Positions 22,281 through 27,069 of a stretch of 64,000 bases of DNA are shown here, one piece after another. Numbering within the stretch: the first letter of the stretch is position 1; every line of letters begins with the position of its first letter. Origin of the DNA: an uncultured bacterium (GTDB taxonomy: Bacteria; Krumholzibacteriota; Krumholzibacteriia; JACNKJ01); NCBI GenBank assembly GCA_964627205.1, contig CAZVHI010000009.1, positions 33,735 through 97,734 on the forward strand, in the 5' to 3' direction. Position numbers and translations under genes: made by a program. Below the pieces are notes generated by a model, which saw nothing but the letters and a program-made list of their open reading frames with translations, made no database searches and had not been told where the DNA came from.

Positions 22281-23846
22281 CTATTTGAGCAGCGTCAGCT
22301 TTCGCGTCCGCGAGTGACCACTTGCGTCCAGGCGGCAGATGTAGACGCCGGACGCGAGCGGCCCACCCTCCGCGTCGCGGGCGTCCCAGGCGACTGCGTG
22401 CCGGCCGGGTCCGCGTAGAGCACTGTCGAGCAAAACGGCCACGCGCCGCCCGGCGAGGTCGTGGATAGCCAGGGTCACCCGCGCGGGAGCCAGCAGGGTG
22501 AAGGCGATCTCGGTCTTTGGGTTGAACGGATTGGGGTGGTTCTGGGCGAGTGTGAAGCCGATGGGCGCCGGAGCATCCACGGCAGTCGGATCGCAGCCCA
22601 TGGCATAGGCCCCCATGAGGTGGCCGCAGTCGTTGTTCTCCGGCAGGCAGGGCGAGTCCTCGGCTAAGTGAAAGTCCCCGGCCGACGGCGCGCAGAAACG
22701 GGGATCGGCCGAGATGTTGCTGTAGATGCCGGTTTGGTCCTGTAGGCTTCCAAGATAGTCGCCACCCACGTTCCCGTAGACGTCGCAGCACCAGACCATC
22801 GCGTCACTGAAAACGTCAAAGAGGTAGATGCCGCCGCCCTCGGATGAGAAAGCGACGATAGTCTGCATCAGCACGAGCCAGGCTCCGTCCCGGCCATGGA
22901 GTGCGCCGCCCCGGCTGCCGGTTTCTAGTGCCACCTCGGCGCGGTTGCCGTGGAATGTGCACTTGTTGAACTCCGGCGCGGCGTTCACCACACAGGCTGC
23001 CCCGCCCTCGCCTGACGTGGGAAAGTTGACGTCGTCATCCACGAGACTTGCCTCAGCCTTGTTCCCATCGAAGAGGCAGTACTCGAACAGCGCGTCGGCG
23101 TACCAGCCACAATAGACGGCCCCGCCATAGCCGGCCGAGTGGTTGATCTCGTCCGTCCATACGTCGACTGCGCGATTGCGCAGGAAACGAGCGTTGTAGA
23201 ACTCGGGCGTACAATCTGACAAATACACGGCGCCGCCCCGCCGTCCCTCGTTCCCCTCGAAGATCACGTTCGTGAAGATGGGGCTGCCTGCCTCCGAACA
23301 GAACACGGCCGGTCCGTAGGCCGCGCTATTGTTCCGGAATATACAATCCTCGACGACGGGTGAGGCGTCGCCGTGGATGGAGAGCGCAGCACCCTCCTTG
23401 TAATGGCCGCCGAGCGGGCCGTAGCAGTTTTCGAACACGAGGTTCTGCAGGGTCGGGGAGGCGCCGTCGATCCTGACAGCCGCATCGTACCAGTAGTACG
23501 CATAGGCGCCGCGGAACGTGATCCCGCGGAGCACTGTGCCCGGCCCCTCGCCGTTGCGGATATAGAAGATGCTTCGGGGGTCCGCGTTCTCGAGGATGGG
23601 GAACTCGGCGCCCTTCAGGCCGGTCACGGTGATCGCCTTGCCTGTGAAGTCGATCTCGACAAAGCCCTCACCGCTGTAGGTGCCAGGCTCGACGAGGATG
23701 CTGTCGCCGTCGGTTAGAACGGAAATCGCTTCCTGGATCGTCGCTACCTGCGTCGGCACTACGACTGTGTTGGCGCCGGCGTTGGCGGCAAGGATCAGCA
23801 GCAGGAAAAAACCGGAGCGCCCTATGATGCGAGCATCCATCGCCAC
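22281..23846 (-). CDS. Secreted right-handed beta-helix protein with FlgD-Ig-like / T9SS type-A C-terminal domain
   Basis: Signal peptide. Beta-helix repeats (NNSAAYGPAVFC, GNEGRRGGAVYL, NRAVDVW...). C-terminus LAQNHPNPFNPKTEIAFTL...LAIHDLAGRRVAVL...WDARDAEGGPLASGVYICRL. Confidence 0.8.
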   Translation of the reverse strand: MAMDARIIGRSGFFLLLILAANAGANTVVVPTQVATIQEAISVLTDGDSILVEPGTYSGEGFVEIDFTGKAITVTGLKGAEFPILENADPRSIFYIRNGEGPGTVLRGITFRGAYAYYWYDAAVRIDGASPTLQNLVFENCYGPLGGHYKEGAALSIHGDASPVVEDCIFRNNSAAYGPAVFCSEAGSPIFTNVIFEGNEGRRGGAVYLSDCTPEFYNARFLRNRAVDVWTDEINHSAGYGGAVYCGWYADALFEYCLFDGNKAEASLVDDDVNFPTSGEGGAACVVNAAPEFNKCTFHGNRAEVALETGSRGGALHGRDGAWLVLMQTIVAFSSEGGGIYLFDVFSDAMVWCCDVYGNVGGDYLGSLQDQTGIYSNISADPRFCAPSAGDFHLAEDSPCLPENNDCGHLMGAYAMGCDPTAVDAPAPIGFTLAQNHPNPFNPKTEIAFTLLAPARVTLAIHDLAGRRVAVLLDSALRGPGRHAVAWDARDAEGGPLASGVYICRLDASGHSRTRKLTLLK

Positions 23847-24009
23847 ACCTTTCGTCGAGCAGGATCATTTTCATGATTATAGCGCACATTGAGGCCGAGG
23901 ATCGGAGAATCGAGCTGCGGATTCGCGTGGGCGCCGGCGGCGCAACCCAAAGCAGGCCGTGGCCCAAGCAATGGCTGGAAGATGCTTCGCGTGGCGAAAA
24001 GACGGGAGC

Positions 24010-24142
24010 AAGTTTGCAGCGTCAGGTCGCGTACGTAGGTCACGCCGTCATAGCCGATCACGCCCACCTGCCCTTCGAAGGAGCAGGAGACGATAGCTAG
24101 ATAGCCGTGCTCGTTCGGCGGGCCGACGGTGATGTCTATCAT
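24010..24142 (-). pseudogene. Remnant (~45 codons) of an FG-GAP/T9SS-protein paralogue
   Basis: Translation PNEHGYLAIVSCSFEGQVGVIGYDGVTYVRDL is ~70% identical to an internal segment (PDNEHGFPTVVACSFEGQVDVIGYDGITYAREL) of the intact FG-GAP gene at 25360-27069. No start, no signal peptide, no CTD. Confidence 0.6.
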
Positions 24143-24302
24143 ATTGAAGCGGATCGATGCTTGGGCCGGCAGAGCAGGCTGCTAAGATCCATCCGCAGCC
24201 GTGTCGAAGGCCGCGGGAGGATCAGCAGGAGCAACGAGAATCCAGACTTGTGCCCTGGGAAGGGCGGGCCCGGCCACGAGGGCATGGCGCCCATCGGGCT
24301 CG

Positions 24303-24662
24303 TCAAGACAGCAGCTTCGCCACGGCATCGCGAAAATGGCGGATCTGCTCCAGAAAGTCCGCGTCGTCCATGCCCACATAATCGTAGACCGACAGATTCC
24401 GCGCGTTCAGGAACCGGTTCCATGTCTCGAGATCACGGATCAGCCGCAGTTGGGCCGCGGCCTTGAGCGCGTCGCGCGGACTGTAGACCTCGAGGCCGGC
24501 ACGATCGGCTTCTCGCTTGAAGCGCTTCCAGGCGTATTCGAAGGTGGTCTCGAAAGCTTTTGCCAGTGCGGCGAAGCGGAGTGGATTTGCAGGCTCGGCC
24601 TCCTGCTCGCGCAATGCGGCGTCCAGAAGAGCGCAGGCCTGACCGAGCTTTTCGTCATTCAT
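24303..24662 (-). CDS. hepT: HepT-like HEPN-domain protein (HI0074 family; nucleotidyltransferase substrate-binding protein), toxin component
   Basis: Matches HI0074/HepT family (FETTFEYAWKRFK, PRDALKAAAQLRLI). The Rx4-6H region reads RNLSVYDY (Tyr where the catalytic His is expected). Overlaps the upstream MNT gene by 8 bp. Confidence 0.75.
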   Translation of the reverse strand: MNDEKLGQACALLDAALREQEAEPANPLRFAALAKAFETTFEYAWKRFKREADRAGLEVYSPRDALKAAAQLRLIRDLETWNRFLNARNLSVYDYVGMDDADFLEQIRHFRDAVAKLLS

Positions 24663-25245
24663 GGAGCTTCATCCCCGCCTTTCGCAGCAGCTCGCACCAG
24701 ATCCCATGCGAGCCAGCCAAGAATACAAGATCCTCCGCCAGACCGCGAAGGAAGGATGCCTCCGCTCGGCTGAGGTCGACGAGCTGAGCTGTCAGCAAGG
24801 ACTCCTGATTCCATTCACTGACGCGATCGAGCAGTCGCGAGAACCTGGCGAAATCGAGAACGTCCGGACTGAACACGGCGATGTCGTAGTCGGAGTAAGG
24901 TTTCGCTGTCCCGCGAGCACGGGATCCGAAGAGCGCGAATACGGCCTCTGGAACGATCGTGTGCAGTTGATCGACGAGACTCGACACGCCCAAGCCCGGC
25001 ACCAGCCTGCGCCGCAGGCGCAGATTCAGGATCTCCGCCGGTGAGAGTTCGAGCGTCGCGAGCATCCTGGCCAGAGCGCTCGGCAGGCTTGCCTTGCCCG
25101 CCAGGTATTTGCTGACGGTATTGCGGTGCAAGCCCAGGGCATGCGCGAAATCCGTGGCGGAGGAGAATCCGTGCTCGTGCATGGCCTGCTGCAGGCGCGT
25201 GGCATCGAGGGTGATCTCTGCGTGTTCAGCTGTCATAGCCTGCAT
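24655..25245 (-). CDS. mntA: Minimal nucleotidyltransferase (MntA-like antitoxin) fused to an N-terminal XRE-type HTH domain
   Basis: N-terminal HTH (FSSATDFAHALGLHRNTVSKYLAGK). C-terminal NTase motif GSRARGTAKPYSDYDIAVF (GS...DxD). Palindrome ACTGTGC-attc-GCACAGT at 25252-25269 lies just upstream. Confidence 0.8.
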   Translation of the reverse strand: MQAMTAEHAEITLDATRLQQAMHEHGFSSATDFAHALGLHRNTVSKYLAGKASLPSALARMLATLELSPAEILNLRLRRRLVPGLGVSSLVDQLHTIVPEAVFALFGSRARGTAKPYSDYDIAVFSPDVLDFARFSRLLDRVSEWNQESLLTAQLVDLSRAEASFLRGLAEDLVFLAGSHGIWCELLRKAGMKLHE

Positions 25246-25359
25246 AGTTTAACTGTGCATTCGCACAGTGTCAATGTGCCATCCCATTCACGGAGACGAT
25301 GTCCCCGGGCTCGACCGTCCCATCCTTGTAAGTTATTGCCATGTTGAGAGTTCTTCAGC

Positions 25360-27069
25360 TCAGCGCAGGAGGACGATCCGGCGGGAGAGGGTCTCGCTGC
25401 CAGCCCGGAGCTGCAGCAGATAGACGCCGCTGGCCTGGGGCTCTCCGTCCGCGCCCTGCCCGTTCCAGAGGGCCGCGGCCATTGCGCCGGGCGAGGCTCC
25501 CTCGGCGAGGATGCGCAGCAAGCGCCCACGCACGTCGTAGACGCGCAGCGAAACCGGCGCCATGCCCGCCGGCGCCGCGAAGCGGATCTCACCGCCCGGC
25601 CGGAAGGGGTTCGGCGCCGCGAGTCGCAGGGCGTTCGCGGCCCCCGGCTCCCAGTCCGCGGCCGTCAGGTCCAGCTCCTCGAACATCGAGACCAGGTCGC
25701 TGCCACTGCGCGCGAGGACGAGATCGCGCCGCGGATCAGTGCCGTCGACAAAAGCAAAGTCCGCGCTGCGCAGGGGATCGCCCACGCTTAGCGGCGGCGC
25801 CAGCTCGCGCGCGTAGGTTATGCCGTCGTAGCCGATCACGTCCACCTGGCCCTCGAAGGAGCAGGCGACGACCGTCGGAAAGCCGTGCTCGTTATCCGGG
25901 CCGATCGCGAGGTCCATCACGTTGCCGGGGATCGCAAAGGGGCTCGTCCACACGGGCGTGAAGGTGTCGTCCGCGTAGGACTCGTAGATGTAGATCACCT
26001 CGTTGCTGCCGAGGACCAGCTCGTTCTCCTCGTCGCCGTCCAGGTCGGCGATGGCGCCGCTGATCGGCAGCCCCGTCGTCGTCGCCTCGAAGAGCTTGTG
26101 TTCCCAGGTTCCCGAGCTGGGATTGTGTTCGAGGCGGCGGATGTAGGTGGGGTAGCCCGGCCAGCCGCCTACCTCGAGCAGGACCTCGCCCTTGCCGTCG
26201 TTGTCGGCGTCGCCGGGCTTGCAGCCGAAGAGGTAGCTCACCGTGTCGTAGTCGTGCGCGAGCGTATAGACGTTGTCACCGATCGCCCCGCTGTGCTCGA
26301 AGAGCTTCAGCGAGCCGCCGTCGGTGGACGAACTGCCCGCGGCGATGATCTCGACAGCTCCGTCGCCGTCCGTATCGGCCGTCTGGATCTCGCGCACCTG
26401 CCAGTCGACCTGGAAGCCCAGCGTCCGCGCCTCGAAGGTGTCGTCGCCCGTGTTCTCCCACAGGTAGAGGCGGCCGAGCGTGCCCGCCTCGCCAGCGATG
26501 ACCTCGCGCAGCATGTCGCCGTCGGTCTCGCCGGTGTCCAGCGCAACGATCGATGGCGTGCTCTGCTGCGGGCTCGCCCAGACCTGGGCGAAGTGATCGT
26601 CCGCGCCGTTTTCGAAGACGCGCACGAGCGTGCCCGGGTAGTAGTAGGCCTGGCCGACGATCTCGCGCGCGCCATCGCTGTCCAGGTCGTCGACCTCGCT
26701 GTCCCAGACGTTCTGCAGCGCGCCGCCCGTGTTCCACTTCTCCGTGAAGCCGAGGATCTCGCGCCCAGACGGGCCCGCCAGCTCGCGGCCCGCGAACAGC
26801 AGCGTGTCGCCGGCCAGCAGGTCGGGCAGGCCGTCGCCGTCGACGTCGGCGAAGCGCAGAGCACCATCATCCCAGACTGCGCGCGATGCGGCGGGAAGAC
26901 GCGTGATCACGTCGCCCGTCTCGCTCCGCAGCACGAGATCGCCACCCTCCCGGGCGGCGTCGATCCGCTCCAGTGTTCCGTCCTGCTCGAGATCCGTGAC
27001 GAGCGTGACTCCGCCCGCGGAGGCGGCGACAAGCAGGGCACTGAAAGTAACAAGGATTCGGGCAGACAT
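25360..27069 (-). CDS. Secreted FG-GAP/VCBS-repeat (integrin-alpha-like) protein with FlgD-Ig-like / T9SS type-A C-terminal domain
   Basis: Signal peptide MSARILVTFSALLVAASAGG. FG-GAP repeats (DVDGDGLPDL, DLDSDGAREI, DTDGDGAVEI, DADNDGKGEV, DLDGDEENEL). CTD LAAPNPFRPGGEIRF...LRVYDVRGRLLRIL...WNGQGADGEPQASGVYLLQL. Start lies 2 nt after the stop of the upstream gene. Confidence 0.8.
   Translation of the reverse strand: MSARILVTFSALLVAASAGGVTLVTDLEQDGTLERIDAAREGGDLVLRSETGDVITRLPAASRAVWDDGALRFADVDGDGLPDLLAGDTLLFAGRELAGPSGREILGFTEKWNTGGALQNVWDSEVDDLDSDGAREIVGQAYYYPGTLVRVFENGADDHFAQVWASPQQSTPSIVALDTGETDGDMLREVIAGEAGTLGRLYLWENTGDDTFEARTLGFQVDWQVREIQTADTDGDGAVEIIAAGSSSTDGGSLKLFEHSGAIGDNVYTLAHDYDTVSYLFGCKPGDADNDGKGEVLLEVGGWPGYPTYIRRLEHNPSSGTWEHKLFEATTTGLPISGAIADLDGDEENELVLGSNEVIYIYESYADDTFTPVWTSPFAIPGNVMDLAIGPDNEHGFPTVVACSFEGQVDVIGYDGITYARELAPPLSVGDPLRSADFAFVDGTDPRRDLVLARSGSDLVSMFEELDLTAADWEPGAANALRLAAPNPFRPGGEIRFAAPAGMAPVSLRVYDVRGRLLRILAEGASPGAMAAALWNGQGADGEPQASGVYLLQLRAGSETLSRRIVLLR

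Follow-up and report, generated by a model that had tools for sequence, protein, structure and literature searches.

The closest described relatives of the locus reported here are the HEPN/minimal nucleotidyltransferase (MNT) pairs, or type VII toxin–antitoxin (TA) systems, whose signature motifs are RX4HXY in HEPN and GSX10DXD in MNT, the Tyr of the former being the acceptor of AMP (PMC7641770, PMC11586414). In the canonical view, R-x4-H forms a metal-independent RNase site, and the antitoxin MntA transfers AMP to the Tyr that follows (PMC7641770). In the Legionella HEPN, R98A and H103A mutants retained RNase activity and toxicity, the active site was assigned to a Q44/E47–Mg2+ centre, and H103 was found to hydrogen-bond to, and stack on, the AMP attached to Y105 (PMC11586414). 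MNT antitoxins have been described as having no DNA-binding domain (PMC7641770), and an early survey speculated on a DNA-binding component acting in trans (PMC2701414). Here, we describe a HEPN/MNT locus in a 64-kb stretch of DNA from an uncultured bacterium of the Krumholzibacteriota (contig CAZVHI010000009.1; the whole stretch is called the window below), in which the antitoxin carries an N-terminal helix-turn-helix (HTH) domain and the toxin carries Tyr in place of the motif His. Our literature search returned no description of an HTH-fused MntA, which does not prove that none exists.

We favor the reading that positions 24303–25281 constitute a self-contained, horizontally mobile HEPN/MNT (type VII) cassette of ~980 bp, probably encoding an antitoxin that is both repressor and enzyme together with an attenuated toxin. 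According to the proposed mechanism, the C-terminal nucleotidyltransferase (NTase) would neutralize HEPN by AMPylating Tyr95, as in HepT/MntA and the Legionella HEPN/MNT pair, and the N-terminal XRE-type HTH would recognize a pair of 17-bp palindromic operators, one over the −35 box and the other over the −10 box of the cassette's own promoter. One polypeptide would thus combine operon repression of the type II kind with the chemical disarming of the toxin known from type VII systems. A leaderless transcript and translational coupling of the two genes are predicted. In the HEPN gene, a single-base change, CAC to TAC, has put Tyr in the place of the motif His, with the acceptor Tyr, the other conserved HEPN positions, and the antitoxin remaining intact. 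The features that this proposal draws on are as follows.

25263–25279, minus strand: operator O1, GCACA-N7-TGTGC, a 17-bp palindrome centered on the −35 box (13-locus alignment).
25246–25274, minus strand: sigma-70-type promoter, with −35 box TTGACA at 25274–25269, a 17-nt spacer, and −10 box TAAACT at 25251–25246.
25252–25269, minus strand: 7-bp-stem palindrome ACTGTGC gaat GCACAGT of the initial annotation, composed of the right half-site of O1 and the left half-site of O2.
25242–25258, minus strand: operator O2, GCACA-N7-TATGC, a 17-bp palindrome centered on the −10 box (13-locus alignment).
24655–25236, minus strand: antitoxin/repressor gene, XRE-HTH plus minimal nucleotidyltransferase, 193 amino acids (aa) (Pfam/NCBIfam, homologs, structural model).
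25030–25203, minus strand: XRE-type HTH domain, approximately aa 12–69 (Pfam, fold matches).
24679–24996, minus strand: minimal nucleotidyltransferase domain, approximately aa 81–186, separated from the HTH by a linker (Pfam, fold matches).
24883–24927, minus strand: GS-x10-DxD motif, aa 104–118 (G104 S105 x10 D116 x D118).
24655–24662, minus strand: 8-bp gene overlap ATGAATGA, the HEPN start codon lying over the MNT stop codon (sequence).
24303–24662, minus strand: HEPN gene, encoding a putative RNase toxin of the HI0074/NTase_sub_bind branch, 119 aa (PF08780, homologs, structural model).
24378–24401, minus strand: window version of the R-x4-H-x-Y loop, reading R88 N L S V Y93 D Y95 (alignments).

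The initial annotation, made from the sequence alone, had recognized an MNT–HEPN module with an 8-bp overlap, and Pfam and fold matches bear this out, placing the pair in the HI0073/HI0074 branch. The HEPN protein matched PF08780 (NTase_sub_bind) at 60.8 bits (cut-off 31.8; E = 1.7e-16) and scored below the cut-off of the HepT-like family PF01934 (DUF86; 15.3 versus 23.5 bits). Its AlphaFold model, with a predicted local distance difference test (pLDDT) score of 91.5, is a five-helix bundle, and a Foldseek search returned the Legionella HEPN toxin as the best match (8xeh/8xdj; template modeling (TM) score 0.86), the scores for 1wty and 8xdj being 0.78–0.86. Solved relatives identified by sequence were TTHA0048, the Legionella HEPN toxin (8xdj, 8yuf), TTHA0636, and HI0074. 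The two genes form an adjacent, co-oriented operon of the type VII kind; an identical overlap joins MNT to HEPN in six other loci (L171–L176) that have unrelated neighbors, and the overlap implies translational coupling of the two genes. PADLOC yielded only weak matches of the MNT protein to PDC-S09 NTase models and none for the HEPN protein.

The antitoxin is a two-domain protein. Pfam returned NTP_transf_2 (1e-09), Polbeta (8.5e-09), and HTH_26 (1.7e-07), and Cro/C1-type HTH models passed their cut-offs (HTH_26, 31.8 versus 22; HTH_31, 27.1 versus 27). In the AlphaFold model (pLDDT 86.3), five helices make up the HTH domain, and a linker modeled with low confidence connects it to an NTase domain of alpha/beta fold. 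In Foldseek, the NTase domain lay closest to Shewanella MntA (7bxo, the top match) and HI0073, and the HTH domain to C.BclI (2b5a), HipB (3dnv/2wiu), and TP901-1 CI (6tri); sequence matches in the PDB likewise linked the NTase domain to HI0073 and MntA, and the N-terminus to HigA. An XRE/Cro-type HTH is thus found by Pfam score, model, and fold match alike. The GS-x10-DxD motif of type VII MNT proteins is present, and 116 of the 123 family representatives retain it. Searches for the fusion itself recovered 64 clusters of close homologs of ~193 aa, and a library of representatives at 50% identity gave 219 HTH-MNT matches at E ≤ 1e-10, with most of the top 150 spanning both domains. Judged by these homologs, the HTH fusion is the rule for a sizeable family of more than 100 cluster representatives; the extra N-terminal domain noted initially is therefore real, and it is the norm of that family rather than an oddity of the window copy.

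The DNA upstream of the antitoxin gene was aligned for 13 loci drawn from metagenomes and genomes whose encoded proteins are 42–67% identical. The alignment contains a sharply bounded element with the consensus TGCACATTGACAnTATGCAnATGCATAnTTATAnTATGCA, and conservation begins abruptly at O1. Both operators conform to GCAyA-N7-TrTGC, with GCAyATTGAcAnTrTGC as the O1 consensus; they are spaced 21 bp apart, center to center, and both promoter hexamers are conserved across the aligned loci. A promoter scan of 23700–25500 identified this as the sole promoter-like site, matching 10 of 12 consensus positions. The combined O1 and O2 pattern has one perfect match in the window, with 0.00 expected by chance, and among 179 fetched loci the O1 pattern was found only upstream of HTH-MNT genes of the clade and never at the ~150 unrelated MNT loci. 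Residues H37, R38, N39, T40, Y44, and L45 of the recognition helix are invariant, and we pair them with the conserved operator half-sites. Palindromic operators overlapping the gene's own promoter are what is expected of an autoregulated HTH-antitoxin operon, and HTH-MNT likely autoregulates its operon through the double operator. The initial annotation had suggested autoregulation from the palindrome at 25252–25269; that suggestion gains strength from the 13 loci. The palindrome is present as described, and it proves to be just the junction of two larger conserved operators rather than the whole site.

The same alignment bears on where translation starts. The antitoxin open reading frame (ORF) spans 24655–25245 on the minus strand, as annotated initially. 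Its first in-frame ATG (25243–25245) directly follows the −10 box and belongs to the conserved O2 half-site (TATGC); we therefore assign the real start to the second ATG, at 25236, which shortens the annotated gene to one encoding 193 aa. Use of the corresponding starts gives full-length proteins of 191–194 aa in the other loci, and the position of the first ATG within O2 explains why some public gene calls run to 196 aa or longer (P0180, P0110, P0114). In the window, 9 nt separate the −10 box from the start codon at 25236, and the distance is 6–9 nt in every locus; a ribosome-binding site would not fit into so short a stretch, and a leaderless mRNA is predicted. Paired operators and often leaderless transcripts are also found at genes for C-proteins, the controllers of restriction-modification systems.

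In the HEPN motif, codon 93 is TAC at 24384–24386, where the clade encodes His, a single-base change from CAC. In the alignment, five solved relatives set R-N-x-T-x-H-T-Y against R-N-L-S-V-Y-D-Y of the window, and the clade profile gives the same register, which confirms the initial assignment of Tyr to the motif His position. Of the type VII signature R-x4-H-x-Y, the window HEPN thus retains the Arg and the expected AMP acceptor, Y95, and has Tyr for His. A search of 5.8 billion protein clusters recovered 102 HEPN relatives at 45–75% identity, in which the motif is near-invariantly RNLSVHDY; His occupies the motif position in 91 of 96 full-length clade members. In the alignment of these 96, the window HEPN departs from exactly one of the 42 columns with a conservation of 90% or more, namely His93. 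The numbers of deviating members per motif position are R 0, N 0, L 1, S 0, V 1, H 5, D 0, and Y 2. Because the clade is so nearly invariant here, comparison within it identifies Tyr93 as a private point mutation of the lineage and not a family trait or a feature of the system.

At least 10 samples, assembled independently, yielded the identical Tyr93 protein, on 23 contigs in all, which refutes a sequencing or assembly error and leaves that explanation next to no weight, its only support being the rarity of Tyr in the family. The flanking 10–16 kb of these contigs are 99.8–100% identical to the window, so that the allele belongs to a near-clonal natural population. Elsewhere in the clade, Arg, Gln, or Tyr has taken the place of His independently at least four times; two of the lineages concerned are 91–98% identical to His-bearing sisters and partly share a 90% cluster with them. 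By this comparison, mutations have hit the R-x4-H-x-Y loop repeatedly and recently, in a HEPN that otherwise stays conserved. Two clade homologs (P0091 and P0095) read RNLSVHDD, with the acceptor Tyr changed to Asp and His kept; the Asp is possibly a charge mimic of the modified state.

The distribution of the cassette was examined with an HTH-MNT profile. Among GTDB species representatives, the scan identified one true clade member, in a Gemmatimonadaceae metagenome-assembled genome (L011), and a metagenome scan identified approximately five; generic MNT matches dominated both. The genes next to the cassette differ in every lineage examined (sulfatases, TauD, a HipBA pair, a recombinase). Conservation breaks off directly before O1 on one side and directly behind the HEPN stop on the other; no conserved sequence lies downstream of that stop, and no shared terminator or attachment site was seen among the loci. 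The guanine-plus-cytosine (GC) content of the cassette is 0.61, against a window mean of 0.676, placing it at the 3.7th percentile of equal-sized windows and upholding the initial remark that local GC is low. At third codon positions, it is 0.73–0.74, compared with 0.81–0.89 in neighboring genes. Across the whole window, no tRNA gene and no Rfam family at the gathering threshold were detected. On a contig named Krumholzibacteria_JACNKJ01 (L171:1001–3608), a 64%-identical cassette stands directly upstream of genes for a HipB-like HTH protein and a HipA kinase, an arrangement that amounts to a small toxin–antitoxin cluster. At another locus (L174:4001–7668), the homologous cassette adjoins a gene for an 811-aa PF07508 (serine) recombinase, a possible hint at the cassette's means of movement.

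Based on sequence comparison, the toxin has most likely been attenuated or inactivated recently, within an otherwise functional and still-regulated cassette. We rate attenuation above full activity because the His is strongly conserved and is replaced by unrelated residues on near-identical backgrounds; whether Tyr93 kills the toxin outright is uncertain. Several points weigh against the overall proposal. The Legionella His-to-Ala mutant stays toxic, so that Tyr93 may not inactivate the window toxin either, and the initial suggestion of an altered or inactive toxin, plausible as it is, meets the finding that both R98A and H103A proteins are still RNase-active and toxic (PMC11586414). In the clade HEPN, Glu38, the equivalent of E47, is invariant, and Q44 is replaced by an invariant Lys35; with Lys at the one position and Glu kept at the other, neither published RNase mechanism maps cleanly onto the clade. 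The population is near-clonal (ten assemblies 99.8–100% identical), so a selection test on the Tyr allele has no power. Equivalog-level and family-level scores also fall short: the HEPN protein narrowly misses the NCBIfam HI0074 family TIGR01987 (51.1 bits versus a cut-off of 55.8), despite which its relatives carry the HI0074 family name in JGI annotation, and the antitoxin reaches 39.3 bits against the cut-off of 60 for the NCBIfam MntA equivalog NF047752, the match being limited to the NTase core (aa 102–173). The antitoxin further has Ala120 (24877–24879), directly after DxD, where 55 of 55 aligned relatives have Gly; this change is probably tolerated, because HI0073 has Ala at the same position. 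As for mobility, no vehicle was identified and no flanking repeats were seen at the window cassette; IMG/VR viral contigs yielded no clade HEPN, and PLSDB plasmids gave no clade-level HEPN match (one relative is 28% identical) and no HTH-MNT.

If the His is non-catalytic in the HI0074-type branch, the cassette could instead be fully functional, its Tyr93 RNase still toxic; the aromatic Tyr93 could even keep a stacking contact with AMP on Tyr95. We consider such a fully active cassette unlikely, though by no means negligible. The Legionella HEPN, in which R98A and H103A remain RNase-active and toxic and H103 stacks on the AMP of Y105 (PMC11586414), is the best fold match (TM 0.86), the E47 equivalent Glu38 is invariant in the clade, and the window HEPN is otherwise perfectly conserved. 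However, the metal ligand Q44 is an invariant Lys in the clade, and the Legionella site is thus not reproduced; no member varies at R88, N89, S91, or D94, and 95% keep the His, a pattern that fits a functional core. His is also the motif residue most often replaced, by the chemically unrelated Y, R, and Q, and the replacements sit on backgrounds near-identical to His-bearing sisters, resembling knock-outs rather than tuning. In canonical HepT-type toxins, moreover, R-x4-H is taken as the RNase site (PMC7641770), and the PDB holds R102A and H107A HEPN mutant entries. Attenuation accordingly stays the preferred account of Tyr93. Two further proposals concern what the pair does. It might be a two-subunit nucleotidyltransferase rather than a TA system, with HEPN as the substrate-binding subunit, a small molecule or nucleic acid as the target, and the HTH merely regulating. 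Pfam and NCBI do name the HEPN family "nucleotidyltransferase substrate binding", and Makarova et al. 2009 left the possibility open (PMC2701414), but for three HEPN/MNT pairs, the HI0074-type Legionella pair among them, later experiments revealed a toxic HEPN RNase neutralized by AMPylation (PMC11586414, PMC7641770), and the patchy distribution, variable neighborhoods, and low GC fit a selfish cassette; we regard a two-subunit enzyme as very improbable indeed. The other proposal takes HTH-MNT/HEPN as an as yet undescribed hybrid of type II and type VII logic in a host-independent cassette that brings along a consensus promoter, a double operator, and a leaderless mRNA, and in which HEPN proteins with a recurrently replaced His or Tyr, conserved elsewhere, would be kept for a non-toxic role, as co-repressor or AMP-accepting sensor, and would turn the operon into an ATP-responsive transcriptional switch. 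We consider this improbable; if true, the cassette would be an ATP-responsive regulator and not a decaying toxin.

Next to the cassette lies a fragment of an FG-GAP gene, which the initial annotation took as a duplication or insertion scar, in keeping with the TA pair having landed in a paralog of the intact gene nearby.

24016–24208, minus strand: decayed FG-GAP gene fragment, the core at 24016–24156 matching 25794–25934 (78% over 141 nt).
25360–27069, minus strand: intact FG-GAP gene with a type IX secretion system (T9SS) tail, 569 aa, the fragment's closest relative and, on the upstream side, the cassette's neighbor.

The homology is real and not chance similarity: the core matches a region inside the intact FG-GAP gene with a blastn E of 7e-28, and weaker protein-level FG-GAP homology continues to ~24208, through an in-frame stop. 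A search of the other frames across 23700–24400 found no further decayed FG-GAP sequence beyond this single fragment. Public annotations place a 106-aa ORF at 23822–24142, which partly covers the fragment and overlaps the start of the next gene; its product has no Pfam or NCBIfam match, the FG-GAP fragment being the only recognizable part, and the ORF is probably not a genuine gene but what is left of a pseudogene. Within the intact gene, 26000–26860 contains internal direct repeats with a 159-nt period, which are FG-GAP/VCBS-like repeat units.

That the fragment is the remnant of a full-length paralog disrupted by insertion of the cassette is possible but doubtful. In favor of this, the distance from the HEPN stop to the fragment is ~95–150 nt, decayed homology interrupted by an in-frame stop continues from the fragment towards the cassette, and the cassette is compositionally foreign. 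However, the homology is cut off sharply on the side away from the cassette as well, at 24016, leaving out ~146 C-terminal codons, and because it ends on both sides, one insertion cannot explain the fragment. Its best match is the adjacent intact gene and not another FG-GAP homolog, which fits an ectopic partial duplication equally well. Nor is there a simple duplicated unit, the flanking beta-helix genes being 25% identical; an old tandem duplication of a beta-helix plus FG-GAP unit was rejected because the two beta-helix proteins share just that identity. The comparison of synteny found the best FG-GAP homologs (55–58% identity) in unrelated neighborhoods and returned no TA-free syntenic relative or version of the locus, so that landing in a paralog could not be shown. 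Insertion into a paralog and ectopic partial duplication are equally plausible. A scaffold from sample SAMN10231914 (L177/L178; the same sample as L002) encodes a 594-aa FG-GAP protein, 58% identical to that of the window and in a different neighborhood, which is either a same-genome paralog or an ortholog in a co-occurring relative.

Tyr at the His position is, by itself, an ordinary private point mutation, and the architecture of the family is the more interesting result. In the published type VII picture, the MNT antitoxin is purely enzymatic and the transcriptional control of these abundant operons is left open; the HTH-MNT family supplies a repressor domain in cis, along with an operator and promoter conserved across proteins that are 42–67% identical. 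A 40-bp DNA site and two small proteins would suffice for direct tests of autoregulation, any co-repression by the toxin, and leaderless expression. The natural His-to-Tyr, His-to-Arg, and His-to-Gln alleles, together with the Tyr-to-Asp alleles, provide a ready mutant series for the disputed role of R-x4-H as an RNase site in HI0074-type HEPN proteins.

Among known systems, the Legionella pneumophila HEPN-MNT pair (8xdj, 8xeh, 8yuf; PMC11586414) is the nearest in its toxin: it belongs to the HI0074-type HEPN branch, supplies the best fold match (TM 0.86), and shares the two-gene operon, the RX4HXY loop with its acceptor Tyr, and a GS-x10-DxD MNT partner. The two differ in that the Legionella MNT is a bare protein of ~100 aa without an HTH, in the proposed Mg2+ site (Q44/E47 there, invariant Lys35/Glu38 in the window clade), and in the motif His, which is Tyr in the window copy; sequence identity is ~23%. 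HI0073/HI0074 of Haemophilus influenzae and Thermus TTHA0048 (1no5, 1jog, 1wty) are the closest solved sequence relatives, with an RN-T-HTY register; they are structural-genomics proteins without functional data, in which the motif His is kept and the MNT has no HTH. HepT/MntA of Shewanella oneidensis (SO_3166/SO_3165; PMC7641770), the founding type VII TA system, has the same gene order, MNT then HEPN, and the GSX10DXD and RX4HXY signatures, and its MntA is the top fold match of the NTase domain (7bxo). Its toxin is neutralized by AMPylation of the motif Tyr, which by analogy may hold for the window pair. HepT falls in PF01934 (DUF86), whereas the window HEPN falls in PF08780, and MntA explicitly has no DNA-binding domain (PMC7641770), whereas the window antitoxin has an HTH.

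A combination of HTH and MNT is found in the Xre-MNT TA system of Streptococcus suis (PMC8406773), where an Xre-type HTH accompanies an MNT and the promoter is autoregulated. There, the two are separate proteins, the MNT is the toxin and Xre the antitoxin, and no HEPN partner is present; it is the nearest related system that we found, with a different logic. Type II XRE/Cro antitoxins such as HipB and HigA, together with the C-proteins, share the fold of the N-terminal domain and the arrangement of paired palindromic operators overlying a mobile operon's promoter. Their HTH protein neutralizes by binding or only regulates, whereas in the window the HTH is fused to a putative toxin-modifying enzyme.

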